Shown here one piece after another: positions 5,971-32,000 of a DNA stretch of 32,000 nucleotides. Below the pieces are notes generated by a model. That model had not been told where the DNA came from. It saw nothing but the letters and a program-made list of their open reading frames with translations, and made no database searches. The first letter of the stretch is position 1; every line of letters starts with the position of its first letter. The DNA is from Halomicronema hongdechloris C2206. GTDB taxonomy: Bacteria; Cyanobacteriota; Cyanobacteriia; Phormidesmidales; Phormidesmidaceae. The position numbers and the translations under genes are program-made. The stretch is taken from the NCBI RefSeq assembly GCF_002075285.3, contig NZ_CP021983.2, positions 2,970,001 through 3,002,000 of the forward strand. Direction: 5' to 3'.

Positions 5971-6156
5971 ACGCTTCCTTTGGTAGGGTAGGGCTAATTC
6001 GTTCTCCAAAAAAGACTGGGAGCTTTATTCTATCGTCGAGCTATTTTCTGCGATCGATGAAGCAACTGGAGTTCTAAGTTTTCTCTCTCGAAAGTGAATT
6101 CTCTCCGCGATTTGCAGGGAAAACCCTGCTCTTGACAAACGACGAATCAGGATGTA

Positions 6157-7665: not shown

Positions 7666-8066
7666 GTTTGCAAAAGTTCATTCAAAGTTGTTTGGCACAA
7701 TTGCCCTAATCGGAGCCAATGATGCAAATGTTGGCCCAGGTAAAAAGCACTGTGTCGACGTTGTCCATTGGTATTTGCCTCCGGCCTTGCGACATATTTC
7801 TGAATCCTCATAAGCTTAATTTGACGGCCTTGCAGTCAAGCACTCGTGTTGGCAATGGCAACCACAATCATCAACTTAGAAAGCTGTTCTGGTGCTAGTT
7901 TAGACCCTTCTAGAGGATAGCTACCAGCCTTAAAATCGCGAAACATTTCTTCAATCATTTTGAACCGCAGGCCATAGGCCGCTATCACCGCAGGGCCGGT
8001 TAAGGTCACATCACTGAAAAGCAAAATGATCTGCTGGCCTGAAGGCCATTGAGAGCTAATTGGCAA
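7620..8066 (-). pseudogene. IS4/IS701-like DDE transposase C-terminal remnant (interrupted)
   Basis: Two consecutive minus-strand ORF pieces.
- 8066-7836: WPSGQQIILLFSDV...AYGLRFKMIEEMFRDFKAGSYPLEGSKLAPEQLSKLMIVVAIA. This is a YREK-type block of IS4-like transposases.
- 7811-7620: IQKYVARPEANTNGQRRHSAFYLGQH, a typical C-terminal tail.
An in-frame stop separates the pieces, and no N-terminal DDE region is present. Degenerate sequence may extend to about 8290. Confidence 0.6.
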
Positions 8067-11957: not shown

Positions 11958-12145
11958 ATCAATATCACCCAACCACCGCCCACTCCACAGCAGTCCCATC
12001 TGCTCTGGACTGAGGTCTAGACGGAGATACCCTTGATTCGCTAGATTGCTCAAAATCCAGATAGTCAAGGTGCATAATCTTCGCTCCTCTCCAGCGTTAT
12101 AGCAACGTATGGAGGGATTTTGCTCATCCATATCTAGTGTCCTTA

Positions 12146-12176
12146 GAAATGCCAGGTGTCTCGCCCCTGGCATTTC
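12146..12176. other. Perfect 11-bp stem / 9-nt loop hairpin (GAAATGCCAGG-TGTCTCGCC-CCTGGCATTTC)
   Basis: Read directly. It lies 146 nt upstream of ATG 12322. It is not followed by a T-run, so it is more likely a leader or regulatory structure than an intrinsic terminator. Confidence 0.5.
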
Positions 12177-12321
12177 CCTATCGGCAAGATGCTTCCCGCC
12201 GTTGTCTGGCTGTCCTTTCAACCATGGAAGCTCTAGGCAACCCAGGGAACCCGTCAGCCTCTATCTGCCCTCGTTTATCTGTATTGGTTTATTTGCACTC
12301 ATTAGGTTCAACATCAATCCC

Positions 12322-16494: not shown

Positions 16495-17874
16495 TCAGCT
16501 GGAGACCATGGCCGCCACCGCCTCAGCCTGGGTGGGCAGGGCCGCCGTCAACACCTGGCAGCCCTCGGTCGTAATCAGCACATCGTCTTCGATACGAATG
16601 CCGCGCACATCATTGAAATGGGTGAGGTAGTCCCAGTTGACGCACTGGCGATAGGTCTGCCGCCGGGCGGGGTCGTTGAGAATGCCAGGCACTTGATAGA
16701 AACCGGGCTCGATGGTAACGGCCATGCCCGCTTGCAGGGGGCGGTCAGGCGCAGAAAGGCCAGGCCAAAGCGCTGGCTCCGCTGCCGGCCTGGGGCATAA
16801 CCGGCCAGATCGCCGAGGTCTTCCATGTCGTGGACGTCGAGGCCGAGCAGATGGCCGACACCGTGGGGGAAAAAACAGGGCGTGAGCATCCTGCTCCACC
16901 AGGGACTCTGGATCGCCCCGCAATAGGCCCAGGTCCACCAGCCCCTCCGCCAGGACACGACAGGCCAGGAGATGCAGGTCTCGGTATTCTACCTCCGGCC
17001 CGGCTTGGGCAATGCAGGCATCGTGGGCAGCCAGCACGATATCGTAGATGGCTCGCTGGGTGGGGGAAAAATGCCCGCTCACCGGCCAGGTGAGAGTAAT
17101 GTCTGAGGCCAGCCGGGAGGGGGCTTCCGCCCCGACATCGGCCAAGAGTAAATGGCCCGGCTGCAGCCGCTGGTGGTACTGCTGGTTATGCAAGACCTCG
17201 CCGTGGTGGGGGGTGACGATGCTGGCGTAGGCGCAGTCCATGTTGTGGGCCAGGATGATCCGCTCCATGGCGGCTCGCACCTCGGCGGCGCTGGTGGCCC
17301 AGGGGGTGGCCACCATGCCTGCTTCGTGGGCGGCCACGGAGACGGCAGCGGCCTCACGGATCTGGGCGATCGCATCCTCGTCATGGCAAAGCCGCACCTG
17401 CACCATGGCCGCTGCCAGCTGGCGGTCAGGATCGGTGGCCTGGGTCGAGGTCGGCACCGGACGACCCAGGATCTGTTCTTGCTGGGCCAATACCGCTGGA
17501 TTGCAGGCGGCAATGGTGGCAGCGCCTTGCACCCGGGGGGCCAAATCGGCCAGGGGATAGGCGGCATCGGCCCCGATCTGCACGGCGATATCATCCCGGC
17601 CAGGGCTGGGGCCATGCCAGAGAACCTCCTCTGGAGAGGCGTCGTCTAGAAACAGGGTGAGCCGCCCCTGCTGCAGGAGGATGACGCCTTGGGCTAGGGG
17701 CAGTCCGGTGAAGTAGAGGAAGTGGCTACTGGCCCGGAAGGGAAAGGTATTGGCGGGAAAGTTGCGGCTGGGAGGCTGTCCGGCCCAGAGGGCTATAGGG
17801 CCATCGATGAATGCGGCCAACCGTCGCCGCCGCTGCCGTAAGGTCTCTGCCAGAGAGAAATGGAGCCCATGCAT
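16495..17874 (-). pseudogene. Xaa-Pro aminopeptidase (peptidase M24B) with two compensating frameshifts across the catalytic core
   Basis: The 459-aa ORF has M24B blocks: LHNQQYHQRLQPGHLLLADVGAE, AVTIEPGFY, GIRIEDDVLIT. The diagnostic HGVGHLLGLDVHD block is encoded in a different frame (track ORF 16575-16958). The annotated frame reads Arg/Pro-rich junk there (PPRCRPSARPRRPRHGRPRRSGR). See the finding for details. Confidence 0.75.
17366..17373. repeat. HIP1 octamer GCGATCGC
   Basis: Exact octamer read at these coordinates. Confidence 0.95.
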
Positions 17875-17995: not shown

Positions 17996-19939
17996 TTATT
18001 CCGAAGGTTCGGCAACCATTCTCTGGTTTGCCGGGACGTTGACCAGGCTATCGAAGACTAATCCGCTATTTCCTTCTCCACGCCCTGTTTGCTTTCGAAC
18101 TCCTAACCAGGTGTAAATCGTTCCTCTGTGCCATCGTGTACGTTGATACCTTTGGGAGACCTTGACCCCGGCACGAGGCACTTCTTCTTCATAGATAAAG
18201 TATCGCTGTTTTTCCAGATCATCCGGAAGATCGAGACCTTCCCGAAGCAAGACAGTGCGAGGTTTGACTTTGGGGCGGTCTGGACTCCCCGATAAAATAC
18301 GAGGCATGGATGCTCGTTGTAGTTGAATCTGACGATTGTCGTTCTCAACGTGAACTGGGATAAAGGGAATCCACTGTTCCGGTACGCGGTTCATCGCCTG
18401 ATAGCGGATAGGCGCATTGTAGGTTTCAGGGGGAGGCACAATCCTACCTGCTTCGATGTCCTGCCCTAGCAAGCGCTTGTAGTGGTTATACAGTTCATAT
18501 CCAGCTTCACTCCCCGATTTACTGTCCCCTGAGGGCAATGGGATGTGCGTTTCAATGCCCCACACCATATTCGCCATTTCATCGCGGATCAGCGAAATTT
18601 CCTCAAGCGATCGCCCTTCTTGAATCTTCGGTACTGTTGGCAGGAGAAGCAGGCTGAGATCGGCTGCTTCCTGGTTTTGCCCTTGGGTGTTGATGGTGAA
18701 CATACTCCAACGCTGCCAGTCGTCATCTTCACCCCTACCTGCGGGTTCTACCCAGATGCGCTCGCCAAACACATTGGTTACCGCCATACCTTTCACTCGG
18801 GCAATGCTACCGACAGAAAGGGGATAGGAAATCAGGAACCAGTCGTTGGCATAGACCAGGCCAAACTCGATAAAGAGTAGTTTGGAGAGATCTCTAGTTT
18901 TGGGGTTAATATCGCCAAAGTTGGTTTTCCGGTCTTCGAACGCCCACCAGCGAGTGTTGGGCATGCCATCATAGCTAACTTGCACGGGGATAAATGACAG
19001 TGGCGTAGGGGCGCTGTCTTGAGGATTTGAAGCGTCTGGATCGGGGGTTTCTGGATCGGAGCTAGGAGGGGGATTGGGAATGGTCAGTTCCCTTTGATTG
19101 GGATCCACATCCAGGTTGTACCAGTCCAGCTGACCTTGATGGTATCCCTGCGCGACGTAAACCATTTCCTCATCTGCTACTGGAGCTGAGCAGGCAAACT
19201 GGTATTCCAATTGCGAGGGTTTCCATGCTTCGCCTAGGGTTTCTGCGGGTTGGTAAAACTGCCGCTGAAACCAACTGAGGAATCTGTCTGCCAGCCTATC
19301 CACCTCAGGGCGGCTATCCACCGGGATAGATGTATTGTCATAGGCTCGATGCGCTGGATCACCCATGAGATATCGATAGAAGGCATAGCCATCCATCATG
19401 CGCCCCGCCACTGCTGTTACCTGCTGCCAGACCTCGGGATGGGCGCAAATTTGGGCATCTGCTGCGTCGTTCGGATCTGGCTCGGCAATGGGGTATTGCT
19501 GAATGTAATCTGCATTAAAGTTGCCAATGGATTGATTGACCAGTTTGAGCCAGTGTCGGCCCATCAGCAAGCGAAGATTGAGGGAAATGAACTGCTCGCC
19601 GATGGTGAAGGGGATGGGGCGGTTTTCGACCTGGGCTTCAAGGGGAACATCATCGGAAAAAGGACGTGGGTCATGGCCATGGGGTTGGTATTTAGTGAGC
19701 CGAGTGGTGCCCATATGCACCTTGGCAAAGATGGGGGATCCGGCGTCGTCTCCCTGAAATTCTCCCATTTGCCATTGCTTGCAGAGCATCCAGAGGGCAT
19801 CGCGCACCTCAACCTTGAATGCCAGGTCGAAGGTGTCTCGGCGAGGTCGTGCCTCCAACCGATTCCACAGGGTAATGGTGGGAAAGGACCGCTTGTTGAG
19901 TACGGCTGCCATGTTTTGAATTGGAGGAAATTCAGGCAT
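17996..19939 (-). CDS. Giant-operon gene 4: 647-aa uncharacterised protein
   Basis: Long uninterrupted ORF. Its start overlaps the stop of the upstream gene (ATGCCTGA, 19939-19932). Conserved-looking blocks are TLWNRLEARPRRDTFDLAFKVEVRDALWMLCKQWQMGEFQGDDAGSPIF and RWWAFEDRKTNFGDI...FGLVYANDWFLISYPL. It has a Pro/Asp-rich linker PNPPPSSDPETPDPDASNPQDSAPTP. I recognised no characterised domain. Confidence 0.9.
   Translation of the reverse strand: MPEFPPIQNMAAVLNKRSFPTITLWNRLEARPRRDTFDLAFKVEVRDALWMLCKQWQMGEFQGDDAGSPIFAKVHMGTTRLTKYQPHGHDPRPFSDDVPLEAQVENRPIPFTIGEQFISLNLRLLMGRHWLKLVNQSIGNFNADYIQQYPIAEPDPNDAADAQICAHPEVWQQVTAVAGRMMDGYAFYRYLMGDPAHRAYDNTSIPVDSRPEVDRLADRFLSWFQRQFYQPAETLGEAWKPSQLEYQFACSAPVADEEMVYVAQGYHQGQLDWYNLDVDPNQRELTIPNPPPSSDPETPDPDASNPQDSAPTPLSFIPVQVSYDGMPNTRWWAFEDRKTNFGDINPKTRDLSKLLFIEFGLVYANDWFLISYPLSVGSIARVKGMAVTNVFGERIWVEPAGRGEDDDWQRWSMFTINTQGQNQEAADLSLLLLPTVPKIQEGRSLEEISLIRDEMANMVWGIETHIPLPSGDSKSGSEAGYELYNHYKRLLGQDIEAGRIVPPPETYNAPIRYQAMNRVPEQWIPFIPVHVENDNRQIQLQRASMPRILSGSPDRPKVKPRTVLLREGLDLPDDLEKQRYFIYEEEVPRAGVKVSQRYQRTRWHRGTIYTWLGVRKQTGRGEGNSGLVFDSLVNVPANQRMVAEPSE
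18607..18614. repeat. HIP1 octamer GCGATCGC
   Basis: Exact octamer read at these coordinates. Confidence 0.95.
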
Positions 19940-22900
19940 CTTCTTCGGTATTGATAAGACGGTAGACGTTGTTATTGAGAGCCAGGTTGAGCATGATGGT
20001 GAGGGGATGGAAAGTGACTGCAGAAATCGTCGCGGGTAAGAAACGGGCGTAGGCTGTGTCGTCTACTTGCGTTGGCTCGACGGCACGCAGGCGAGCTTCT
20101 TCGATGGTTTCGCGGATGGCATCGACCAGGTCATTCCACTGCCATGCCCCATCCATATGGGGGCTGGCCACCAGTAGCATCGTTTGTGGGGGTTCGGCGT
20201 TAGGCCGGTCATAGTTGAAGGTGATGCCCGTTGTTTCTTCTGGCGTCGAGATGACTTCCGTCCACTCGTCCAGCAGCAGCCCACACTGGTTTGCGCCTGG
20301 ATTGAATGGGATCGCGTAGTGAGCCGTGTAGAGCAGGCGATCGCCCTCAAACTCATAATCTGGCGGATAGGGCATAGCCAGCCATCGATCATGTTCACGA
20401 TAGGGCAACTGTATGGGTATCAACTCTGGTTCCCCAGTGCCAAAGGCACGGCTCAGCATCATCACCCGTTCCCAGTGGGCAGCATCTTCGCGGACTCGGG
20501 CCACGCCGTACAGCCATTCATCTACGGGAAAATCTAGTCCCACCCCAGCAGGCTCTGGATCGGTGAGATAGGAGAGGATGAGGGTGCGATCGCCCCAAGC
20601 CTTGTTCCACTCGCTGGCCTGGTCCTCAGATAAGGAAAATTCTGGAATGATTTTGAAATCCTCGCCCAGCAAAGTTCTCGCCGCCTGGGTTAACCCTTCT
20701 ACGCGTGCCGGGGCTGCTCCAAGGCTCAGGGCCGCCGAAATCTGATCGTTGGCGGTGGTTTGTCGGCGCAGCAGTTCCGTGCGCAGCAGAGTCATTCGGT
20801 CATACAGGTCCCCCGCAAACCGCAGGATTTCTTCCTCCACCGCCGCCACCTCCAGCTTTTGGTAATCAAAAGCATCCAGGGGCAGCCGAGCATTGATGTC
20901 TGTCAGCAACTGGGATAGGGCTGTATTAGAGGAAGTTTGGATCGCCCGCAACTGGTTCAGTTCCGCCTCGAAGGTTGCGCCCTTGGCCTGGGCAGCCATT
21001 CGGTACTCTTCGGGGATTGCAGGCAGGGGCACGGTCAATTCTGTCGAGACCAGCCCTTCCGCCTGCCGCAGCAGGCTAATCCGTTCCTCGTCGGTGGTTG
21101 CTGCCGGATAGTCGGTGGTGAGCAGGGTATTGAAGCGGTCGAGTCGGTCTTGCCATCGTTCCACAAGTTCATCCACCTTGCCTCGTAGTATCCCAAACTG
21201 CTGCTTTTTCCAGTCATAGGTAAACCCAATGCCTGCCTGGGGAATGCTAAACTTCATCGCCTGGACAAACAGCGCCATCACCCGATCAATCCAATTGTCG
21301 ATCGCCCCCAAAATGTTGCTCCGGTGGGTTTCTGGATCAGGCAACCACAGATCCAGATCGGCGATCAGGGCATCCAGATCATCAGTGCCCGGATTGGGAT
21401 GGGACACCAGTTCTCCCAGTTGCGTTACCAGAGGGGTTAGCCGATTCTCATTCAGCAGCACTTGCTCTGCTGTTTCTTGTCGGGTCTCCGTGGGCAGTGC
21501 CACATCCGCTGCATTCAGGGGGCGCGATTTCAGAATTAAACTGCGCAGGCTACCCAGCATGGCCCCTACCTCAAAGAAGGAAATGCGGCCCGGTTCCTTC
21601 AGCACATACTGAATCTGAATATCCCCATCCCAGCGAGGATTGTGGGTTGTCAGCACATGATAGACCACCTGGTCATCCAGTTCAGTCATGGCCTGATTCG
21701 TTTCAGGATTGACGAGGTAGAGCAAATCTAAAGGTTGTAGCCCAAGTTGTTGCTGGCTCACCTCATCTGTGGTCAAGGTACTGTTTGCCGCATTCAGATA
21801 GGTTGCTTTGCAGATCACCGTGGCAGGATCGGGCAGCAGGCGATTCAACCAAGCATTGACGGCGGGTTCGGCATGGGTGCGGGGGGTAATGGCAAGGGCA
21901 TTGGGCGAAATAGCCGGATTCAGCCCCGACTCGAAGTGCAGCCCCATGCGATGGGTCAGGTTTATGCCGCTACGCGGTGTTTGCACCACTTCTGGTTCGG
22001 GAGGAAAGGTGCCTTTGGCGTAGGCATCCAGGTTTGATGCTACTCGTCCGTAGTTGCCCTGTACCGCCTGATAAACCCCCTCTGCCATGACCAAATCGGC
22101 GACCGCATCGTGGACGTCGAGAATTCGGTCAACCTCCGTGTTAATCACGGCTTTTTGTTCATCTGTGATATCCGTTGTGGGAAGGCTTCCCTTGCCAAAG
22201 GGATAGGTCTCGATGTTGGACTGTTTGATCTGGTTAACCAGGGCATAGCCATTAATCACATTGCGGGCCTCGATCGCTTGGATGGCATCGGTTTCCTCCG
22301 AGCGGGTCTCCCGAAATCGATCGGCCACCAGGGGAAAGGCTTTGCGCAGTTCAAAAATAAACTGATCGACTTCGGCCTCGGGGTGGCGATCGTGTAGGCC
22401 CCGTTCTAGTTGATACCCCAGCAGCGCTCCCAAGGTTTGCCCGTTGCGGATGCCTTCGATGATGCCCAACGCTAACCGCACCCGCTCAGAGGACAGGTTC
22501 ACCTTCAGCAGATCGGGATTGCCTGGTGTGGCGTTAGCAATGTAGCCATTGCGGAGAATGGCAGCTGCGATCGCATGATTGAGTGATGGCGCATGGATAA
22601 ATCCGCCGTTGGTATTGTCTCGCATCAGGGGGGGCAGGTCTTCTGCTTCCGGAGGGTTGAAGATGGTGTCCAGTTCCTCACCCAACTCATCCGACTTCAC
22701 GGGAGTGAGCCGTTTGTTTTCTGACTTCACTCGTTCCACAATGCCGAAAGCCCCCAAGTAGAGGCCCTGCCGCGCTGGAGAGCGGTCCCCAGCAACGGCC
22801 AGACGTTCAACATCAATGTCGTCATCAATATCGTCGTCGGAACCATCGTCGGGGGGGCTGGGAGTGCTTGGCGGCGTGGGGCGATTGCCATACCGCATGC

Positions 22901-25727
22901 CCAATAGCTGATAGTTCAACAGTCCCCAGCGCCAGGCATCCAATCGGTAGGTGCATAGATCTACATGTTCCGCTAACAGGCGTTCTAACCGGGCCGTCGG
23001 CGTGTTCTCTAGGTGCTTCAATGCCTCCAGTTGCTGATACAGGTAGCGGGTGGCAGGCAATTGACTGATGACTTGAGGAATATAGTCTGCCACCACCAGG
23101 TCGGGATTGTTGGTGATGGTAGGGGCCGTCTGGTAGAGATATTCATAGCGGCTCTTACTCCGCTGGTTGAGCCGGACGGGCTTGCCAGAGGTTGCCAACG
23201 GGTTGGGAGTCGGTTCTAAGGAAGATTCAAAGGCGCGATCGGCGACATGCACGAAACTCGGATCGAGTCGAGCCGTTGCCAGTTGTGCTGGGGAGAGTAG
23301 CTCGAACGTCTGAAACAGGCGCAGTCCTGCATCCCAATAGCCTTGTTCAAGGGCATAGCGGAGCATCAGATAAAGCAAGGCTCTGGGCTTCTGGGCGAAG
23401 CCCTCTTCTTTGCGCAAAGCATCAAAGGAGGTCTGGGCGGTATCAATCAGCCAGCGAATATAGTTGCGGCCATCCTCCGTGTAGGCGCGGATGGGGTTCA
23501 TCTCCGACAGGGGCTGATCGTCGATGAGATCTCCTAACAGTTTGTCGGGTTGCTTCAGAAAAAATTTCTCCAGGATTTCAGGGATAGCCGTATCCTCGTA
23601 CCCTAGACGGGTCAGCAAATCCATGCCGCTTTGGGGATAGCCCAATGCAATCAGCGCCACCAGCAGGTGTCCCCAAGCCCCCTGTAACTTCAGGCGATTA
23701 GTCAGCTGCTCCAGGCTTTCGGCATAGCGCTGGTAGTATTCCACTGACGAGGGATGCAGTCCCACGACATCCAGCAAAATCTGATGGGGGTCACTCTCCT
23801 CGCTCTCCTCGCCCTTGCCCACATAGGAAACCTTCGAGAGCTGCTGCTGCCAATCTACCCGCATCGTTTCCAGGAGCTGGTGCAACTCGATCAGGTAGTT
23901 ACGGTAGCCCTCCGGATGGGGCACTCCCAAGGGGCGGGGCCACCGTCTCTCCCGCAGCCAGACCACCCGGCTGAAGACAGTGGTGGGAAGAATGCCATAG
24001 GGCTGGTCGCCAATGCGAATCGCAGGCAGGATGCCCCGGGCCGAGACAAAGTTTGTGAAGAACCAGCGCGTCTTTTCGATGGTCGAGGCATCGAAAACCG
24101 GGGCCATCATCGATTCCATCAAGTAGCCCCAGGTGCCCGGCCACAACACCGTATTCATGGCCCGGGCCTCACACTGGTCGCGCCCCCGGGCGCAGGGTGT
24201 ACGATCAAAAGTGTTGAGTCGGATGCCCAACAAATCGGCAAGCCACTGGCCATCCCTGCGCGATCGCAAATCCGGGTCATGGGTCAATGGGTCTGGCTTG
24301 AACACCAGATCATAGGTATCATCGGCATCCTCGCGTTCAGAAAAGCCAGAACCTGCCCCTTCCGTATTGTTTGTCGGGGTTCCCTGGGGCACCAAGCTGA
24401 AGCCAGAATTCCCCGTTTCGTGATGTTGAAATAGGGTTTCAAGCATCTCTTGTCCGGCACTCGCATCGGCGCTCAGCCGCACCCCCAGTACCAGCAGCTG
24501 ATCAAAACCCAGGTTTAGATCCTCAGGGCTCAGGTCGACCCGAAAGCCCATTCCCACCTCTACGGCACGATCGAAATCGACCATCCACCGCATGGCGTCA
24601 CTGACCACCACATCGCCATTCTCCAGGCGTAGCTGATCGGCCTCATCCGCTAGAGGATCTGGCCCTGCAATCAACGGCATGGAGATAGGATTGCCCAGTT
24701 GCTCCAGCACCCGCTCTCCCCTGCGATAACCCAGCAACACCAACCGCTCCGGCAGCACTGTCACACGGGGAGGCTGGGACCAGGGCTGTTGTTGAGTTGC
24801 CATCTGCTCCTGGTCAGGGAATTCGAGCCAGGCGACCGCGACACGCGCCTGTGGCCGAGTCAGGGGGGATGGTGGTTCATCTGCCAGGTTTGCAGGGACA
24901 TAATCGGTGCGCATTACGGCCGCCTGCTCTATCCCGATCGCCGCGGCTAATGTCTCAACGGCAGTCTGCTCCGCTGCGGCATCACCCGCGGCCCGCCACC
25001 AGGCAATCCAGAATGCTTCAACGGCAGGTTTCTCTTCAGGGGGCAAGGGAGACTCCGTGGAGATTACCAACACTACGTCGAAGTCTGTCTTTTGCGGGAA
25101 GGGGGTACCCAGATCAGGACGGTATTGCTGAATCAACCAGGCCGCCCGTCCAGCACCAAAGCCAGCGACGAGCGATCGCCACGCTCCCCGCTGTTCAGCC
25201 TCCTCCCCTCCCGCTTTTGCCCAATCCACCCAAAACTTTTGGACACTGACCAGTTCACTTTCTGAAAGCACCGCTTCAAAGGTATCCACCAGGCATTCAT
25301 CGGGATATACCCGCACCCAGAGCTGCTCGACCTGGGTTGCTCCTGGAACCTCCACCGATTTAAAGCGGGTTTCGAGCCGCAGGGGAAACAGCAAAACAGG
25401 GTAATCGGTACTTTTGAAGCGAAGATTGTCGCGGGGATCGGTAAACGGCAGAAATTCGGCAGTCAATCTCTCTGCCATTCTGACAGATTCACCCAGACCG
25501 CTTTCCAGTTGACTGATAGTGGCCTCCGTTTTGGCCTGTTGGGCTTGCAACCGGCGCTGACGAGCCTGGTGCTGCGGGTTTTGCGGATTGAAATATCGAT
25601 CTAGCCGCTGCTGTGACCTCTGATTTTTCGCCAGTTGCTCGCGGGCAACAAACAGGTTTAACCGGGTATTCTCCTGCTGCTGTCTGGTTTGGTGGAGTTG
25701 TCTGCATGTGTCGTCGAATTGCGTCAT
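19932..25727 (-). CDS. Giant-operon gene 3: 1931-aa uncharacterised protein
   Basis: An uninterrupted 5.8-kb ORF. GGAG lies 7 nt upstream of the ATG and overlaps the end of the upstream gene, with a 5-nt intergenic gap. The N-terminal 90 aa are Q/R-rich and coiled-coil-like. Blocks include PVLLFPLRLETRF, LWVRVYPDE, IRIGDQPYGILPTT and GGFIHAPSLNHAIAAAILRNGY...LGALLGYQLERGLHD. An acidic run reads DDGSDDDIDDDIDVE. I recognised no known domain. Confidence 0.93.
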   Translation of the reverse strand: MTQFDDTCRQLHQTRQQQENTRLNLFVAREQLAKNQRSQQRLDRYFNPQNPQHQARQRRLQAQQAKTEATISQLESGLGESVRMAERLTAEFLPFTDPRDNLRFKSTDYPVLLFPLRLETRFKSVEVPGATQVEQLWVRVYPDECLVDTFEAVLSESELVSVQKFWVDWAKAGGEEAEQRGAWRSLVAGFGAGRAAWLIQQYRPDLGTPFPQKTDFDVVLVISTESPLPPEEKPAVEAFWIAWWRAAGDAAAEQTAVETLAAAIGIEQAAVMRTDYVPANLADEPPSPLTRPQARVAVAWLEFPDQEQMATQQQPWSQPPRVTVLPERLVLLGYRRGERVLEQLGNPISMPLIAGPDPLADEADQLRLENGDVVVSDAMRWMVDFDRAVEVGMGFRVDLSPEDLNLGFDQLLVLGVRLSADASAGQEMLETLFQHHETGNSGFSLVPQGTPTNNTEGAGSGFSEREDADDTYDLVFKPDPLTHDPDLRSRRDGQWLADLLGIRLNTFDRTPCARGRDQCEARAMNTVLWPGTWGYLMESMMAPVFDASTIEKTRWFFTNFVSARGILPAIRIGDQPYGILPTTVFSRVVWLRERRWPRPLGVPHPEGYRNYLIELHQLLETMRVDWQQQLSKVSYVGKGEESEESDPHQILLDVVGLHPSSVEYYQRYAESLEQLTNRLKLQGAWGHLLVALIALGYPQSGMDLLTRLGYEDTAIPEILEKFFLKQPDKLLGDLIDDQPLSEMNPIRAYTEDGRNYIRWLIDTAQTSFDALRKEEGFAQKPRALLYLMLRYALEQGYWDAGLRLFQTFELLSPAQLATARLDPSFVHVADRAFESSLEPTPNPLATSGKPVRLNQRSKSRYEYLYQTAPTITNNPDLVVADYIPQVISQLPATRYLYQQLEALKHLENTPTARLERLLAEHVDLCTYRLDAWRWGLLNYQLLGMRYGNRPTPPSTPSPPDDGSDDDIDDDIDVERLAVAGDRSPARQGLYLGAFGIVERVKSENKRLTPVKSDELGEELDTIFNPPEAEDLPPLMRDNTNGGFIHAPSLNHAIAAAILRNGYIANATPGNPDLLKVNLSSERVRLALGIIEGIRNGQTLGALLGYQLERGLHDRHPEAEVDQFIFELRKAFPLVADRFRETRSEETDAIQAIEARNVINGYALVNQIKQSNIETYPFGKGSLPTTDITDEQKAVINTEVDRILDVHDAVADLVMAEGVYQAVQGNYGRVASNLDAYAKGTFPPEPEVVQTPRSGINLTHRMGLHFESGLNPAISPNALAITPRTHAEPAVNAWLNRLLPDPATVICKATYLNAANSTLTTDEVSQQQLGLQPLDLLYLVNPETNQAMTELDDQVVYHVLTTHNPRWDGDIQIQYVLKEPGRISFFEVGAMLGSLRSLILKSRPLNAADVALPTETRQETAEQVLLNENRLTPLVTQLGELVSHPNPGTDDLDALIADLDLWLPDPETHRSNILGAIDNWIDRVMALFVQAMKFSIPQAGIGFTYDWKKQQFGILRGKVDELVERWQDRLDRFNTLLTTDYPAATTDEERISLLRQAEGLVSTELTVPLPAIPEEYRMAAQAKGATFEAELNQLRAIQTSSNTALSQLLTDINARLPLDAFDYQKLEVAAVEEEILRFAGDLYDRMTLLRTELLRRQTTANDQISAALSLGAAPARVEGLTQAARTLLGEDFKIIPEFSLSEDQASEWNKAWGDRTLILSYLTDPEPAGVGLDFPVDEWLYGVARVREDAAHWERVMMLSRAFGTGEPELIPIQLPYREHDRWLAMPYPPDYEFEGDRLLYTAHYAIPFNPGANQCGLLLDEWTEVISTPEETTGITFNYDRPNAEPPQTMLLVASPHMDGAWQWNDLVDAIRETIEEARLRAVEPTQVDDTAYARFLPATISAVTFHPLTIMLNLALNNNVYRLINTEEDA
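20337..20344. repeat. HIP1 octamer GCGATCGC
   Basis: Exact octamer read at these coordinates. Confidence 0.95.
20586..20593. repeat. HIP1 octamer GCGATCGC
   Basis: Exact octamer read at these coordinates. Confidence 0.95.
22567..22574. repeat. HIP1 octamer GCGATCGC
   Basis: Exact octamer read at these coordinates. Confidence 0.95.
24260..24267. repeat. HIP1 octamer GCGATCGC
   Basis: Exact octamer read at these coordinates. Confidence 0.95.
25172..25179. repeat. HIP1 octamer GCGATCGC
   Basis: Exact octamer read at these coordinates. Confidence 0.95.
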
Positions 25728-25732
25728 GGGTC

Positions 25733-28700
25733 CTACTCCGGCAACATTTCTGAGGCGTGAACGGCAACCCGGACGGGTACCTGATACATGATGTAAGCCA
25801 TTTCAGCGGCACTGACGCTACCCGTCCAGGTCACTTGCACATCTTCTGCGTGCTGCCGTTGGCCTTCCTCGTCACTAGCTGGGGGTGTATCGTCAAGTGC
25901 CACCCCAGGCGTCATCGTTGGTCGGACGAAACTTCCAGCCGCACTTCCCGGCAGTACATCCTCCCAGGACAAGTCATTCCAGTACCGCTTGGTACCTCCA
26001 CCTGCCCCATCTTGGTCGATATCAAAGCCGAAGCGGGGTTCTACGCCACGTTCCTCAATCACGAAGAACCAACCCGGAAAATCAGGATTCGTCTCCGTTT
26101 CCCCTCGGGCTTCCTCTGCTTTCAGATCAATACCAAAGCAATAGGTATCTGGATCTACCTTGGCTTCATAGAGGGGCGTGCGGATTTTATCCGGGGGAGG
26201 GTTCTCCTCCTCATCCGCTGCCAGAGGACACAGCATCCGGGGTTTGGTCTTGTCAATTTCACCATCATCAGTCAGCTGCCAATCTGCCCGTTGGGCATAG
26301 ATTACCGCCGTGGGATACTTTTTCAATAGCTCGCCTCGAATCACTAAGACCAGTTCTTCTTCCTTGTCCCCTTGTGCTTCCCGGTGGTCATGGTCCCCCA
26401 AGTTGGAAAACCTTGACCACCGATGCAGAGGCGGAATGTCTCGCAGTCGTTCTTTCAGGGCTTCCTGGTCGGTGTTGTCGCGATCCAGGAAGCTACTCAC
26501 ATCCCAAAACTGGCGAAAATAGCTGCCCCGCTGGTAGGTAGGGTATTCTCGCCAGAGGAGTTCTCGAGCGAATTCGTGATTGAGTCCCACCATGTAGGCT
26601 TCGATGAAGCGCTGGTTAGTTTCTAGCAGGGAGATACTATTTTGCTCAATGTATTGCAGGTTGGGCAGAAACAACTCGTCTGAGATCTCCACCAGAGGCT
26701 TGTACATGGGGATGTCGAACTCTGGATAGGCCATCGCCTCTTCAAAAATTTCGAAGAGGGCATCTTTAATCCGGGGGGGAATAAAAATTGTCGTCAGAGT
26801 CGCCCGAGGAATGGTTACATCGGGGTTGATCGCCTGAAACGTCCCCGCTGTTAAAGCAGGCAGATCCAATGAACTTTTGGGTGGTTCCTGAGCAACTTGG
26901 TGACTCGCCTGAATGAGGCGGTAGGTATCTTTGAGGGCGGCCTTGAATCGGGTAGCCTCAGCACTATCGGCATTGCCCTGACTGGGCCGAACATCTTCAT
27001 TCGGTCGGGTCAGGACAAAGTCGGGGCTTTGGGGTAAATCGTCTACTCGTTCGGGGGTTTGATTCTCTTCCTTGAGGCTATCGGCAGCTTTGGTCTGTCT
27101 GCCAATGGCATTCAGATAGAAGAAGACGATTAAGGCAAGAATCCCCACGATTAACCCCGCTAATCCCCAGAGCAGTGCCACTATCAAGGCGATCAGCAGC
27201 AAGATCAGAAACCTCAGCCATGATGGGATGCGGCGCACTAAATCTAGAATTATCCCCGGTACTTGGGGTAGCATTTCTTCTGCGAGTTCATCTAGAGTCG
27301 GTAAGCTGGGGGGCGTGGTTTTCGGGGGGGCCGGGAAGACGTCCCGGTTGTTGAGACGCGTCACCAGGGATTCGGGCGGGCGGTTGGCAGGAAAGTTAAG
27401 CTTCTTGATCAGGCGTGATCGCGATCGCATCATCCGTCGCATGGGAGCCGCCACCGCAGTGCGGGGGACATAGCTGGTTCTCATCGCATGGAACCGGGTG
27501 GTGCCCTCCACCAGAATGCGCCGATCCAGCGGAGCCGTCAGGGTGAAAAAGCGATCGGGGTTGGTGTCTTTGAGGGACCCCAAGTGATCGTTGTACCAGA
27601 TCCAGGAAATCTCCTTGGCAACTTGTGCCCACTTGATCTGTTGGTTGGCTTTGAGAATTTCACCAACTTGGCCCCAGGCAGCATCCATATAGGCTTCCTG
27701 GTTTTTCTTAATCACCTCGGTGCCAAAGCCAGCGGCAGCGCGAAACCGAGGATCCAGGTTGAGATCATGAACCCAGTTGCTGTTTTGAGGCAAGTCATTG
27801 CCCGTTTCATCCGTGAGCAGACGCTGCATTTTGGCGTGCCAGCGTCCATAGAGCGGGGGCGTAATCAGAGGATCGGGATCGGGATCAGTACTGATGGGGT
27901 CAGGCAAATTGGGATCGCTATTGGCGGTTTCAGCCTCCAAGCGGCTATAGCCCTCCGCCAAATTGATGAAGGCCGCCAACTCTGACTGAAATGGATGGGG
28001 ATAGGGCTGATCCCAGTTTTCGTATTTCAGAACTTCTTGCTGGTCTTCCTCCTTGAGGGTGTCAAAGGGAATTTGCAAGGCACCACCGAGCTTCAACACC
28101 CCTCCCAGTTCTGGATCAGTAATGCCCGGCAGGTTGGCGTCGGGAAACTGCACATCCATGTCCCGCCGTCCCACCCGGCTGTCCATCGGCTTGGGCTTGA
28201 GCAACCGCACCAGGTACTCAAAATCACCAGCAGTGCTGGTACGGAAATACCAGCGATAATAGACAGGATAGTGGGTCGGCTCTTGCCGAGGGTTGGATGC
28301 TCCTTCAGGATATGCATCCCAGGCACAGTGGGTAGCGTAGGGAGCCGTGATCGGATCCAGCCCCAATCCAGCCAGCCGTCCGGTTTCAAAGACGGGCATG
28401 AGAAATGCGTGGTAAGCCGTATTCGGAGCCAGCTTGCGGGGCGACACAATCCGCGAATAGGCCAGGTCTGGATTTTGTTTCAGCGTTTGCTGCAACTGGG
28501 CAAGTACAGGATCATTCTCATCGGCCTCAATCACCATATCGGTACTTCCAGCCATCAGGCTTTTGTTGATATGAACATGGGCCCAGGCCCAGAGATCCGC
28601 CGAGGGGGGAAAGACCGAGGGATCCTCAACAATGAGGTAGGGGAGGGGGCGCTCGCTCCCACTGCTCCCCTGCTGAAATTCTTCCTCAGTCAGCACCACC

Positions 28701-29077
28701 AGCATGATCCAGGGGCGCAGCCGATTGTTAGAGTTATCGGGTTTGGCCGGGGTATAAAGCCAGGGAAAATCTGGGTAGGGAAACTCGATATGGGGAAGGA
28801 AATTCGTCTCAAAATTGGTGATCCAGTTGCGCGGTTCGACCTTTAGAATGGCCTTGCTGTCAATGCCGACAATATCACCAGGGCCATAAAGCTCAATATC
28901 CTGGGAAATCTCCTGCTCTAGTGGAGTCGTGCCCTCTATGGGATCGCCCTTGAGCTTGAGGGTAATGGGGACCGACGCTCGGGTTTTGACAGCTGGATCC
29001 AGATCGGTAGCGTTAATCCGGTTGGCTATGCCTTGGCGCAGCCATGGCAGGAAGGTATAGGTGCCCAGTTCAGTCAT
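25733..29077 (-). CDS. Giant-operon gene 2: 1114-aa uncharacterised protein with central transmembrane hairpin
   Basis: An uninterrupted 3.3-kb ORF that starts 9 nt after the stop of the upstream gene. There is no signal peptide (MTELGTYTFLPWLRQGIANR). The hydrophobic stretch SWLRFLILLLIALIVALLWGLAGLIVGILALIVFFYLNAI spans residues 618-657 (nt 27107-27226). I recognised no known domain. Confidence 0.93.
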   Translation of the reverse strand: MTELGTYTFLPWLRQGIANRINATDLDPAVKTRASVPITLKLKGDPIEGTTPLEQEISQDIELYGPGDIVGIDSKAILKVEPRNWITNFETNFLPHIEFPYPDFPWLYTPAKPDNSNNRLRPWIMLVVLTEEEFQQGSSGSERPLPYLIVEDPSVFPPSADLWAWAHVHINKSLMAGSTDMVIEADENDPVLAQLQQTLKQNPDLAYSRIVSPRKLAPNTAYHAFLMPVFETGRLAGLGLDPITAPYATHCAWDAYPEGASNPRQEPTHYPVYYRWYFRTSTAGDFEYLVRLLKPKPMDSRVGRRDMDVQFPDANLPGITDPELGGVLKLGGALQIPFDTLKEEDQQEVLKYENWDQPYPHPFQSELAAFINLAEGYSRLEAETANSDPNLPDPISTDPDPDPLITPPLYGRWHAKMQRLLTDETGNDLPQNSNWVHDLNLDPRFRAAAGFGTEVIKKNQEAYMDAAWGQVGEILKANQQIKWAQVAKEISWIWYNDHLGSLKDTNPDRFFTLTAPLDRRILVEGTTRFHAMRTSYVPRTAVAAPMRRMMRSRSRLIKKLNFPANRPPESLVTRLNNRDVFPAPPKTTPPSLPTLDELAEEMLPQVPGIILDLVRRIPSWLRFLILLLIALIVALLWGLAGLIVGILALIVFFYLNAIGRQTKAADSLKEENQTPERVDDLPQSPDFVLTRPNEDVRPSQGNADSAEATRFKAALKDTYRLIQASHQVAQEPPKSSLDLPALTAGTFQAINPDVTIPRATLTTIFIPPRIKDALFEIFEEAMAYPEFDIPMYKPLVEISDELFLPNLQYIEQNSISLLETNQRFIEAYMVGLNHEFARELLWREYPTYQRGSYFRQFWDVSSFLDRDNTDQEALKERLRDIPPLHRWSRFSNLGDHDHREAQGDKEEELVLVIRGELLKKYPTAVIYAQRADWQLTDDGEIDKTKPRMLCPLAADEEENPPPDKIRTPLYEAKVDPDTYCFGIDLKAEEARGETETNPDFPGWFFVIEERGVEPRFGFDIDQDGAGGGTKRYWNDLSWEDVLPGSAAGSFVRPTMTPGVALDDTPPASDEEGQRQHAEDVQVTWTGSVSAAEMAYIMYQVPVRVAVHASEMLPE
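27421..27428. repeat. HIP1 octamer GCGATCGC
   Basis: Exact octamer read at these coordinates. Confidence 0.95.
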
Positions 29078-29086
29078 GATCTTGTC

Positions 29087-32000
29087 TCATGCGTCGATAT
29101 TGACCTCATCGGATAAGATGACGTGGAGCAACTCTCGGCGCGTGGCATCTTTGGCAACCTCTGCCTGCATAAATTCACGGGCCTTAGCCTCACTAGTAAA
29201 GATCGCCTGCTGGCTGATCGCCTTGTTATCAACCGTAGATGCCACCACAAATTGTTCGGGCCTGAGCGTAATTTTTTCGTCAAATGGCTGGAATTGCCGT
29301 TTGTAATGCAGAGATACCACTGATTTCGTGATGACGCTGCCGTTGAGGAAAAGGTTAAACAGCCGACTGACCAAACCCAGCAGGGCAATCAATGCAAATA
29401 GGGAGTTGGTGTCGATAATATGAGTCTCCCAGCGGATGTTGCGCTTGACCGCTTTACCTGTGGCCAGGGATCGATCTGAAACTGCCAGTTCCAATCCTGC
29501 ATCTTCCGGTTGGAAGGCTGCCTGAGAGAGCTTCTCGTCGTCTTTGAAATCCTGGAATTGAGCAATGGCAAATTGCTCGGTCAGATCTTTTACCTTCTTC
29601 AAGCCACCGACCACTTCCAGATAAAACCGCTTGCCATCACTGGGTTTTTGACTACCCACCTTGTCGAGCCGGATACCCAGCGGCACTGCCCGTTGCGTCA
29701 CCATCAGGGTGCCAGCCGGAGGCAACACCAGGCTCTCATTGTCCTCCTCTCGCTTCCGTAAGGACACCGGCAGATTGCTCGATGTCGGCAGCCGAACCTG
29801 CCAGTTTGCCAGCTGTTGCAGTTGCCCTTGCAGCAAGGGCAAGACCTCAATCGGCGGTAAGGAGGTATCTTTCTTTTCACCCCAGGTGAAGTCAAAGTTG
29901 GCTTTGATGGTGAAGAAGAGCAGCTTGAGTTTGCCGTATCCCTTGGCGCGCCAGGGTGTCGGCCCCTCTAGGGAGAACCGCAGTTCGATGCTGAACAGCC
30001 CAATGCCAAAGACCTTGAGGGAGACTCCACAGGATATCTCGATAATGAAGAAGAAGGGATTGAACTGAAACAGGGCGTCAAAGCCGCAATGGCCTTCAAG
30101 ATTAAAGACCTTAAAGCCAAAGAACAATTCTGCTCTGGCCCCCAATTGCACCGTATTAGAGGTGATGGCAAAGTAATTCATCACCCGAATCCGACCCCAG
30201 GATTCGTTCAGGATATTGAGGGAAACCCGCTTGGGAGTGGGGAAGGGCAGCGGTGGCGGTGTGAACTGCGGGTGGAAGCCCCCCACACTAACCACGAAGT
30301 TGCTGTCATTGCCCCAGGCAATGAGTAGCCCCATCTCTCCTTCAAGGGTGATAAAGAGGATCCGTGACTCAAAGAGACTGGCAAAGAAGTAGGCCCGCTG
30401 CTTGTCAAACTCAAGGACACCAATGAAAAGAACCTTAAGTACGAGTAGGGGAACTCTTTCGTCTGGCAGCGCCACCTTGAGAATGCCCAAAATGGCAATG
30501 TTGCCTGGAATCTCAAAGATGATACCAAGGGTAAAAGTAATCAGAGCCGGGGTTCCCCAACCCAGTTTGACCATGGGGCCAATCAGGAAGATTCCCTCTT
30601 CTGGTGGGAAGAACTGCCGTAGATCACTGATAATCCTGGGTGCATTGACGATCACATTCCGTGGGAACATGATGCTCTCAGTTGCTCCGGTTCGAATGCC
30701 TTCGGTTAAGGGTTCGGGCTTCATGGTGCGATTCAGCCCCAACAGACCCCCAACTCCCAGCAAGACAAAACCATACCCGAGCTGAAACCCTGAGCCAAAT
30801 TCAGCAGAAAGGATCAGTAATAAGGAAAAGCCCTTAGAACCATCTGGCAGGCGCGTGGTGATCAGGCCAATTGCCGTAACGCTGACGATGCCAATCAGCT
30901 CAAGGGATAGAATGCCATCGTACTGTTCTTTCTCGGGGTAAAAACGGAGGAAGCCGCCGCCTCTTATCACACCTGCATCTACTGCTAGCCCAACACCCTT
31001 AGGGGGGTTGAATCCAATATCTAAATCAACGGGACCAAGATTTCCATTCTGGTTCGCAGGGAAACTGAGATCTGCCCGCATGCCAATTTGTTCGATCGCC
31101 GCGATTAGAGGGCCAAAATTGGCATTGATATCAGCACTCAGGCTAATAGGAATCTCACTGGCATCAATCCCCACGCCAATAGTGATCGCCTTAACTTTGA
31201 CGACCCCAAGGTCAATATGAGCTGGCAATTGGACCAGTAAAGAACTGCTGCCATAGAAGAAAATGCCGTCTGGACCAGAAAAGCCAAAACCAAGATCAAA
31301 ATTGGATTCCAGTTTGATGTTCGACAAGATCCTAGTTAGGAAACCATCTCCTTGACTGAAATCAATGAGGAGTTTTCCGCCCTTAACTTCCCCGCCGATT
31401 GTGAAATCACCTATCGCTCGGTTTGCAGACGGATCCCAGGCAAAACCTATTCCTGCTCTCATGGACAGTTGTGTCGCTTCTAGGCGACTACCACCGGGTC
31501 GCCCCAAAATCAGGTAAGGATCACCGTTCTTATCGCCACCAATCCACTCTAAAAATGACTCCCCTTTGAGTTGTCCCGATGGAGGAATAAATGCAACCTT
31601 TCCATCAGGTTGGATGATTATTTCAACACCCGGCACCAGATCAGTATTTGAGATAAAGCGAATTATCCAGTCATCAAGTCCATACTCTTCACTGTCTACG
31701 ATGATCCGATCGAGCAAGGATAACTCTAATCCTTTAGGATTGATATTCGTTTCTGGTTTTGCTTCCAGATAAATTAAATCTAAGACGGGGGTGGCAGCTG
31801 TCTGATCGAAGATGGCAGGCACACCACTACGGTTCAATAATTTTTCGAGGGTGCTCAATAAACGAATGCCATCAAAAGAAGAACGACCCCAATCATAGAG
31901 GTTTTCAAGGTGTTCTCCGGGCCGACTAATAAAATGAGTGAATTGATTGAGCTTTATTTTTCGGCTGGTATAGGTGAAATCGCCAGATATATTTTCCTGC
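29087..32000 (-). CDS. Giant-operon gene 1: at least 970-aa protein, DUF6603-like, 5' end outside window
   Basis: The track gives a TTG start at 31858. My own translation of the same frame upstream is stop-free to the window edge (QENISGDFTYTSRKIKLNQFTHFISRPGEHLENLYDWGRSSFDGIRLLSTLEK...), so the gene probably continues beyond 32000. The core block GGGFLRFYPEKEQYDGILSLELIGIVSVTAIGLITTRLPDGSKGFSLLLILSAEFGSGFQLGYGFVLLGVGGLLGLNRTM (nt 30725-30961) matches what I remember of DUF6603 proteins. That match is from memory only and is not verified. Confidence 0.88.
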   Translation of the reverse strand, partial: QENISGDFTYTSRKIKLNQFTHFISRPGEHLENLYDWGRSSFDGIRLLSTLEKLLNRSGVPAIFDQTAATPVLDLIYLEAKPETNINPKGLELSLLDRIIVDSEEYGLDDWIIRFISNTDLVPGVEIIIQPDGKVAFIPPSGQLKGESFLEWIGGDKNGDPYLILGRPGGSRLEATQLSMRAGIGFAWDPSANRAIGDFTIGGEVKGGKLLIDFSQGDGFLTRILSNIKLESNFDLGFGFSGPDGIFFYGSSSLLVQLPAHIDLGVVKVKAITIGVGIDASEIPISLSADINANFGPLIAAIEQIGMRADLSFPANQNGNLGPVDLDIGFNPPKGVGLAVDAGVIRGGGFLRFYPEKEQYDGILSLELIGIVSVTAIGLITTRLPDGSKGFSLLLILSAEFGSGFQLGYGFVLLGVGGLLGLNRTMKPEPLTEGIRTGATESIMFPRNVIVNAPRIISDLRQFFPPEEGIFLIGPMVKLGWGTPALITFTLGIIFEIPGNIAILGILKVALPDERVPLLVLKVLFIGVLEFDKQRAYFFASLFESRILFITLEGEMGLLIAWGNDSNFVVSVGGFHPQFTPPPLPFPTPKRVSLNILNESWGRIRVMNYFAITSNTVQLGARAELFFGFKVFNLEGHCGFDALFQFNPFFFIIEISCGVSLKVFGIGLFSIELRFSLEGPTPWRAKGYGKLKLLFFTIKANFDFTWGEKKDTSLPPIEVLPLLQGQLQQLANWQVRLPTSSNLPVSLRKREEDNESLVLPPAGTLMVTQRAVPLGIRLDKVGSQKPSDGKRFYLEVVGGLKKVKDLTEQFAIAQFQDFKDDEKLSQAAFQPEDAGLELAVSDRSLATGKAVKRNIRWETHIIDTNSLFALIALLGLVSRLFNLFLNGSVITKSVVSLHYKRQFQPFDEKITLRPEQFVVASTVDNKAISQQAIFTSEAKAREFMQAEVAKDATRRELLHVILSDEVNIDA

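Follow-up and report, generated by a model that had tools for sequence, protein, structure and literature searches.

What is encoded by the four giant, tightly spaced genes that fill the last 14 kb of a 32,000-nucleotide (nt) stretch of Halomicronema hongdechloris C2206 DNA (contig NZ_CP021983.2, positions 2,970,001 to 3,002,000; here called the window)? The genes, designated g1 to g4 in the direction of transcription, lie on the minus strand (Table 1), and an original prediction, made from the nucleotide sequence, had proposed that they form a novel multisubunit system. When the open reading frames (ORFs) were derived again, the coordinates and lengths of all four agreed with that prediction, as did the junctions, a 9-nt gap, a 5-nt gap with GGAG over the stop codon, and an 8-nt overlap (ATGCCTGA). 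The proposed four-gene unit did not survive: in the relatives, g1 is preceded by a variable enzyme gene, so that the window contains only part of the operon and at least one further gene lies upstream of g1, outside the window. Full-length g1 has 1132 amino acids (aa), and its residues 1 to 162 (162 residues) also lie outside. As detailed below, the four genes form the constant chassis of a module that is self-contained, moves horizontally, and comprises at least five genes.

Homologues were abundant. More than 3000 were found for each of g1, g2, and g4, with full-length identities of 50 to 60% across distant phyla (g2, more than 3118 homologues, 54 to 60%; g4, more than 3518), and the g4 profile matched 5026 representative clusters at an E value of ≤1e-3 among 1.84 billion proteins. 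Relatives of g2 were present in at least 368 genomes of a collection with one genome per species. Among the approximately 80 to 85 loci fetched, the order g1-g2-g3-g4 on one strand was maintained in every locus long enough to contain it, mostly with 4-nt overlaps, and the four families thus co-occur across many phyla, as the original prediction had implied. According to the record titles of 80 fetched loci, the carriers belong to the Cyanobacteria, Alpha-, Beta-, and Gammaproteobacteria, Bacteroidota, Chloroflexota, Acidobacteriota, Actinomycetota, Planctomycetota, Verrucomicrobiota, Gemmatimonadota, Chlorobi, and Eremiobacterota, with one Heliobacteriaceae genome; at least 12 bacterial phyla are represented, and diverged copies were found on haloarchaeal megaplasmids. 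The carriers therefore comprise monoderms, diderms, and archaea, which argues that the system does not depend on envelope type.

All four chassis proteins were unusually uniform (45 to 60% identity across phyla), and the ratios of nonsynonymous to synonymous substitutions (dN/dS) against the closest relative (0.12, 0.07, 0.08, and 0.09 for g1 to g4, respectively) indicate strong purifying selection on every one of them. The window copy of g2 was 61% identical to an alphaproteobacterial copy, compared with 51 to 54% for those of Leptolyngbya PCC 7375 and Nostoc; the cyanobacterial copies are thus scattered rather than grouped, and the module therefore moves horizontally. Its surroundings were not shared, since the flanks yielded 396 clusters among 527 ORFs, with nothing conserved 3′ of g4 or farther upstream than the gene adjoining g1.

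In nearly all loci a gene on the same strand abutted the start of g1, and the identity of this gene varied. According to our tally of the per-locus class assignments, class c0, consisting of trypsin/Nal1-like proteins (∼500 aa) or S8 subtilases (∼800 to 880 aa), occupied the position in ∼38 loci, often as two to four tandem copies, and class c3, M64-like zincins with a HELGH motif, occupied it in six. Further S8 subtilases were found in two loci, and an M14 carboxypeptidase, a tyrosinase, and a kelch-type glyoxal/galactose-oxidase-like protein in one each; a PhoD-like enzyme took the place in a Salinigranum locus. Classes c1, c2, and c33 (nine, six, and two loci, respectively) and a few singletons had no assignable activity. 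By the same tally, recognizable proteases of four unrelated catalytic types made up roughly three quarters of the upstream genes in the loci that have one. Several of the upstream enzymes come from families whose members normally act outside the cell, and none of the N termini inspected by eye carried a signal peptide.

The trypsin-like and S8 enzymes share only a C-terminal domain of ∼130 aa (56 ORFs, E values of 1e-30 to 1e-51) for which there is no Pfam model. This domain was absent from the other upstream classes, and no domain was common to all of them. Tandem arrays of two to four trypsin/Nal1-like paralogues, each ending in the ∼130-aa domain, were seen at L005:2625-6596 and in loci L034, L043, L052, L057, and L071. 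For their part, c1 and c2 have in common a Gly-Cys motif as well as a conserved His; that they may be Cys-His hydrolases is a guess from these residues, with neither PDB nor Pfam support. No recurrent small gene emerged beside the upstream enzymes from the clusters of flanking ORFs, and a literature search on bacterial NAL1 relatives returned nothing relevant.

The connection between the variable enzyme and the chassis was revealed by grouping the loci by upstream class and comparing pairwise identities within and between classes, with 2000 permutations. For columns 1 to 400 of g1, identity was higher within classes by 0.102 (standard deviation, 0.007), a difference reached in none of the permutations. 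From column 450 onward the difference fell to 0.011 (reached in 126 of the 2000 permutations), and it was 0.003 for g2 (437), 0.007 for g3 (280), and 0.008 for g4 (195). Thus, g1 follows the enzyme class over its first ∼480 residues, whereas the rest of the quartet does not. The g1 N termini of trypsin-type and S8-type loci, whose enzymes are linked by the C-terminal domain only, were 0.27 identical to each other, compared with 0.21 to 0.24 for unrelated classes.

The same boundary appeared when near relatives were aligned. Against loci L005 and L006, g1 identity rose sharply from 0.3 to 0.8 at residue ∼480; the window protein and the Elainellaceae copy were ∼0.3 identical over residues 1 to 480 and ∼0.8 identical thereafter, with g2 to g4 of this pair at 77 to 82%. 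Such a break indicates a recombination (mosaic) breakpoint at residue ∼480 of g1 between near relatives. The N-terminal modules nearest to that of the window came from Lewinellaceae/Bacteroidota loci (46.6% identity), and among the 25 nearest, the upstream gene was of the serine-protease class in every locus in which it could be classified. The gene just beyond position 32000 is therefore predicted, from the type of g1 N terminus, to encode a trypsin/Nal1-like serine protease of ∼500 aa with the shared C-terminal domain. Taken together, the constant chassis consists of g2, g3, g4, and the part of g1 that begins at residue ∼480, and the exchangeable cassette consists of the enzyme or enzymes plus residues 1 to 480 of g1.

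In Pfam, g1 matched DUF6603 (PF20248) with 410 bits against a cutoff of 27 (E value of 1.4e-122; positions 29537 to 31219), so that the DUF6603-like core suspected in this gene was real; PF20248 was present in all of the 120 g1 homologues listed. DUF6603 is a family without assigned function, and a literature search retrieved no paper mentioning DUF6603, PF20248, or IPR046538. A full-length AlphaFold2 (AF2) model of g1, built from an alignment of 76 sequences, had a mean predicted local distance difference test score (pLDDT) of 78.9 and a predicted template modeling score (pTM) of 0.44. In this model a helical bundle (residues 6 to 219) is followed by about 30 long antiparallel strands, some of them up to 20 residues long, that form an up-and-down meander between residues 334 and 867 (pLDDT, 85 to 92), broken by helices at residues 590 to 625 and followed by a mixed C-terminal domain. 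The core of g1 is thus predicted to be a very large meander β-sheet or barrel-like wall. When the model was compared with the PDB by Foldseek, the best matches were LptD, Deinococcus SlpA, PapC/FimD, and MtrB (E values of 1e-5 to 1e-3), with template modeling (TM) scores of 0.09 to 0.30 and root mean square deviations (rmsd) of 20 to 30 Å; we therefore read them as a local likeness to the sheets of giant β-barrels and not as membership of their families. Tc toxin chains were absent from the top 50 PDB matches listed.

The AF2 model of g2 (73-sequence alignment; mean pLDDT, 80.3; pTM, 0.61) begins with a β-sandwich or β-rich region and ends with an α/β domain; between them lie a helical domain, one helix of which spans 45 residues, and a helical hairpin at residues 619 to 668. 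Foldseek found no match for it in the PDB (best E value, 0.27) or among the viral models of BFVD (best E value, 0.34), and the Tc toxin component XptA2 matched only weakly (E value of 1.4). The two helices of the hairpin were modeled at residues 619 to 635 and 639 to 668, in the middle of the protein, where the original prediction had placed a transmembrane hairpin. A strongly hydrophobic segment (above a threshold of 1.9) occurred at the matching position in all 73 close relatives, with 19-mer hydropathy peaks of 2.6 to 3.4 among the members listed, and it lies within a linker of variable sequence. No segment of this kind was found in g3 or g4, and the diverged archaeal, Streptomyces, and Rhizobium clades lacked it in g2.

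g3 combines a helical N terminus rich in Gln and Arg with conserved blocks in its core and a helical region of variable sequence at residues ∼1370 to 1700. The coiled coil suggested earlier for the Q/R-rich N-terminal stretch is plausible, with matches in its support that were not significant. A member-by-member Pfam scan of 25 g3 sequences gave noise only, and neither g3 nor g4 had any hit in the PDB profile search. In g4, invariant Trp, Arg, Glu, and Asp residues are numerous, and a Pro/Asp-rich linker lies at residues ∼286 to 312. Extended variants of g4 yielded a single ConA-like hit, below threshold, and otherwise no additional domain that was informative, and the N-terminal extension of one variant, considered as a fusion with g3, was rejected as such. 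Comparisons by hhalign among g1 to g4 detected neither paralogy nor internal repeats.

Searches against known systems covered Tc toxins, extracellular contractile injection systems (eCIS) and type VI secretion systems (T6SS), adhesins, S-layer machinery, phages, and defense systems, and no confident profile match of g1 to g4 or structure match of the g1 and g2 models placed the proteins in any of them. Apart from DUF6603 in g1, nothing exceeded the Pfam thresholds for g2, g3, or g4; NCBIfam and PHROGs gave no hit for any of the four, and neither did the PADLOC-DB models at an E value of ≤0.1. Profiles of g1 to g4 run against all PDB sequences returned either nothing or designed helical bundles and coiled coils. 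A motif scan counted no Walker A, HExxH, YD, or RTX motif, and none of the four proteins had an N terminus resembling a signal peptide, just as had been noted from the translations. A Tc toxin was rejected on the absence from g1 to g4 of TcA, TcB, and TcC domains (VRP1, TcdB-mid, and SpvB in Pfam and NCBIfam) and of YD motifs. The predicted lack of contractile components was confirmed as well: no Pfam or PHROG hit to sheath, tube, baseplate, VgrG, PAAR, or AAA+ proteins was obtained, and the regions flanking the fetched loci had nothing of the kind in common, so that a contractile injection system was also discarded. A phage module was rejected after IMG/VR, INPHARED (tblastn with g1), PHROGs, and BFVD (with the g2 model) had been searched without a match. 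We therefore regard the components and the operon architecture as new, on the basis of models for g1 and g2 and of sequence profiles for g3 and g4.

Diverged clades retained the arrangement and added domains to it. In tblastn searches, relatives of g1 and g2 (26 to 40% identity) occurred in exactly the same 13 plasmid records, 4 of which are haloarchaeal megaplasmids. Salinigranum shows the order PhoD-like enzyme, DUF6603 protein, and g2-, g3-, and g4-like proteins; the g3-like protein (E value of 7e-82) has a halo_surf_dom (BGTF) inserted in the variable region, and the g4-like protein (E value of 2e-71) has two C-terminal lamin-tail domains (Pfam LTD). The gene order is the same in Halalkalicoccus, whose record annotates the g3-like protein, 3124 aa long, as BGTF surface domain containing and the g4-like protein as lamin tail domain containing. 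These gains of BGTF/halo_surf_dom and lamin-tail domains by g3 and g4 orthologues were observed in the haloarchaeal megaplasmid loci L086:17799-27483 and L090. On Streptomyces linear plasmids, the g2-like protein bears FG-GAP/VCBS repeats and the upstream protein a peptidoglycan-binding domain. One quartet lies between tyrosine recombinases. In Rhizobium lusitanum plasmid p_3 (L089:11911-21541), the g2-like gene is split into products of 357 and 731 aa and the g3-like gene into products of 946 and 597 aa, and pentapeptide-repeat and nucleotidyltransferase genes stand where the hydrolase would be. Neighbors resembling toxins (DUF2235, phospholipase-D-like, and RHS-repeat proteins) were noted on the opposite strand in loci of two plasmids, one from Streptomyces sp. 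NBC_01724 (L091) and one from S. longwoodensis (L088), and a WD40 gene follows g4 in L091.

The explanation that we favor, tentatively, is that of an ATP-independent complex, made in the cytoplasm and tethered by the g2 hairpin, which would hold an enzyme docked on the g1 adaptor and deploy it at or across a membrane. In this scheme, interchangeable enzymes that lack signal peptides, one or several per locus and most often proteases, would be produced from the genes directly upstream of g1, and the first ∼480 residues of g1, exchanged together with the enzyme, would act as its dock. The rest of g1, as a β-sheet wall, would assemble in the cytoplasm with hairpin-tethered g2, g3, and g4 without the help of an NTPase, and the resulting large complex would hold the enzyme and deploy it, most likely to the outside or into another cell. 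From comparison among loci we infer the existence of a single physical complex, the docking of the enzyme, and the direction and purpose of deployment. Outward deployment is favored because enzymes of normally extracellular families lack export signals, because the system ignores envelope type, because diverged members carry additional domains of surface or adhesion type (lamin-tail, BGTF halo_surf_dom, and FG-GAP/VCBS, as well as the peptidoglycan-binding upstream protein), and because the cassette is organized much as in polymorphic effector systems.

Features of known machines recur in this arrangement. Like Tc (ABC) toxins, the quartet consists of giant, presumably co-transcribed subunits without signal peptides or an ATPase, with a hydrophobic helical element potentially capable of membrane entry, a predicted β-sheet wall reminiscent of the TcB/TcC cocoon, and an interchangeable enzymatic payload. 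It differs from them in lacking the Tc domains and RHS/YD repeats, in the insignificant score of XptA2 against the g2 model, in having four chassis subunits instead of three, and in that the payload is a separate folded enzyme of 40 to 95 kDa encoded upstream and not a C-terminal hypervariable region. The effector-adaptor cassettes of T6SS, eCIS, and polymorphic toxins similarly place a variable enzyme and a cognate adaptor segment before a constant machine, with tandem effector paralogues and recombination breakpoints at the edge of the conserved part; in contrast to those cassettes, no contractile component or immunity gene was seen here, and the role of adaptor falls to the first 480 residues of a chassis protein and not to a separate chaperone. 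That the quartet represents a new class of ATP-independent protein-deployment nanomachine in bacteria and haloarchaea, with four fold-novel subunits and a plug-in adaptor-enzyme cassette, is a possibility that we regard as somewhat doubtful, and the same doubt applies to ranking it beside Tc toxins or eCIS.

Several observations weigh against outward deployment by such a complex. The uniformity of the chassis is atypical for host-targeting toxins. No lysis cassette, release mechanism, receptor-binding hypervariability, or immunity gene was seen. Judging by the diverged clades, membrane insertion cannot be the core function, since these lack the hairpin; and where the hairpin is present, its positively charged flanks would fit equally well with an anchor on the cytoplasmic side of the membrane of the producing cell itself. 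The earlier proposal of a cytoplasmically made, membrane-engaging assembly is supported in that it fits the absence of signal peptides and the hairpin conserved in g2, with the caveat that the diverged clades lack the latter. In addition, no activity could be assigned to c1, c2, c33, and several singletons, g3 or g4 may prove related in fold to a known machine, and assembly, enzyme binding, secretion, and release would all have to be read from comparative evidence.

The main rival, which we consider unlikely, is protease-triggered membrane attack or abortive infection, in which the upstream protease, an activator or itself activated rather than cargo, would cleave one of the giant proteins and set free an assembly that damages the cell's own membrane, by analogy with gasdermin and protease pairs. 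The predominance of proteases of four unrelated catalytic types would fit this idea, resembling nonorthologous replacement of a proteolytic step, as would the cytoplasmic nature of every component and the conserved hairpin; the loci are patchy, horizontally transferred, and self-contained, some of them lying between recombinases on plasmids, and co-variation of the g1 N terminus could equally reflect a protease docking on its substrate. As in bacterial gasdermin operons, proteases of several unrelated families adjoin a candidate membrane-active partner, but the gasdermin pore-forming domain was absent from g1 to g4 in Pfam, the partner amounts to ∼4,800 residues in four proteins, and tyrosinase, glyoxal oxidase, or PhoD-like nonproteases occupy the upstream position in some loci. 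The negative PADLOC result, the absence of a sensor NTPase or other recognizable sensing domain, and the housekeeping genes that flank the block in the window, where no defense island was found, also speak against it, and tandem arrays of two to four paralogous proteases would be unusual for a trigger.

Rather more unlikely is an intracellular, membrane-tethered enzyme cage with the g1 N terminus as its loading site, comparable to a self-compartmentalizing protease or an encapsulin-like compartment, in which the chassis would surround or scaffold dangerous proteases and oxidases within the producing cell. Its appeal lies in the operon logic: as with encapsulins, the cargo gene stands directly upstream of the structural genes and the commonest class has a dedicated C-terminal module. 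Export signals and NTPases are missing, as would be expected of a cage, and the high and uniform conservation of the chassis would suit a closed architecture; furthermore, plant NAL1, a relative of the commonest upstream enzyme, itself forms a cage (PMC12012508). On the other hand, the C-terminal module is a 130-aa domain and not a short peptide and does not occur in the other cargo classes, the chassis has a membrane hairpin, and no HK97-fold or bacterial microcompartment (BMC) shell family was detected among the Pfam hits of g1 to g4 or the matches of the g1 and g2 models. Four different giant subunits are unlike known shells, the surface- and adhesion-type domains of the archaeal and Streptomyces versions point outward, and a cytoplasmic role for tyrosinase, glyoxal oxidase, or the M64-like protease is not obvious.

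We judge it very unlikely that the quartet is an envelope or structural apparatus, handling lipids or polymers through the g1 sheet, for example, with the adjacent enzyme being incidental or regulatory. The modeled core of g1 resembles LptD, the ushers, SlpA, and MtrB locally, with a long up-and-down antiparallel sheet of ∼30 strands, and g2 would be anchored in the membrane. Nonetheless, the TM scores and rmsd given above, the strands of up to 20 residues, the missing signal peptide, and the presence of the family in monoderms and archaea (Actinomycetota, Chloroflexota, and Halobacteria) set g1 apart from these barrels, and outer-membrane β-barrel machinery was rejected on these grounds. Moreover, enzyme and chassis are coupled, as the co-variation and the breakpoint within g1 show, and the patchy distribution argues against a housekeeping role. 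Finally, that these are decaying or chance ORFs with no functional system, a view with nothing but the missing annotation in its favor, is refuted by the dN/dS values, the thousands of full-length homologues, and the strict synteny and is scarcely conceivable.

The history of the operon in its host can be approached through the HIP1 motif (GCGATCGC), of which the window contains 13 copies, compared with 0.57 expected. Seven of them are in the operon, all in g2 to g4, and none occurs in the ∼2.9 kb of g1. This density, from which long residence had been proposed, shows adaptation of the operon to its host genome; taken as a whole, the family nonetheless moves horizontally and is mosaic. g1, which is free of HIP1 and also bears the mosaic N-terminal module, or a part of it, may be a later arrival.

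Below position 17996, the in-window side of the block is occupied by housekeeping genes, pepP and a GlgX-like gene, and farther out lie alpha-amylase-family, Crp-family, aconitase-family, CpeS, and SasA-like genes. A compositional island at positions 6001 to 8000 has a GC content of 0.37 to 0.42, compared with 0.52 to 0.62 around it, and this island, which includes a 502-aa ORF, may have been acquired horizontally. At the start of the window, an ORF on the minus strand (positions 1 to 990) that runs off the edge encodes a multipass membrane protein and thereby explains why the first kilobase has an AT skew of 0.27. No Rfam family or tandem repeat was found in the window, and promoter and terminator scans were uninformative.

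Table 1. Coordinates of the operon, its predicted parts, and neighboring features in the window
Feature	Position	Strand	Remarks
g1 (DUF6603, XM38_028430)	29087-32000	minus	Open at window edge; 970 codons inside window
g1 variable N-terminal "adaptor" module	31046-32000	minus	Residues 163 to 480 of 1132; helical bundle and first β-hairpins in the model
g1 constant part	29087-31045	minus	DUF6603 core and C-terminal α/β domain
g1/g2 spacer	29078-29086	minus	9 nt; TGA + 9 nt + ATG
g2 (XM38_028420)	25733-29077	minus	1114 aa
g2 hydrophobic helical hairpin	27098-27229	minus	Residues ∼617 to 660; Arg/Lys on both flanks
g2/g3 spacer	25728-25732	minus	5 nt; GGAG overlapping the g2 TAG stop
g3	19932-25727	minus	1931 aa
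g3/g4 overlap	19932-19939	minus	8 nt; ATGCCTGA
g4 (XM38_028400)	17996-19939	minus	647 aa
pepP-type M24 aminopeptidase	16495-17874	minus	121 nt downstream of g4
GlgX-like alpha-amylase-family gene with CBM48	14220-16388	minus	
Alpha-amylase-family gene	12109-14115	plus	Convergent with GlgX-like gene
502-aa ORF	6157-7665	plus	TTG start; PhyH-like dioxygenase region and C-terminal Rieske [2Fe-2S] domain

Even if the proposed mechanism of deployment is wrong, the strict five-part synteny, the breakpoint at residue ∼480 of g1, and the co-variation with enzyme class stand as a concrete comparative result. If the mechanism is right, ∼14 kb of wholly unannotated coding sequence, which thousands of environmental bacteria and a number of archaea carry, would represent a new kind of molecular machine, and a function would be provided for DUF6603 and three unnamed families. 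Its constant chassis and exchangeable enzyme-adaptor cassette would be attractive for the engineering of protein delivery or containment, and the system might explain how signal-less proteases, tyrosinase, copper-radical oxidases, and PhoD-like phosphatases are put to use.

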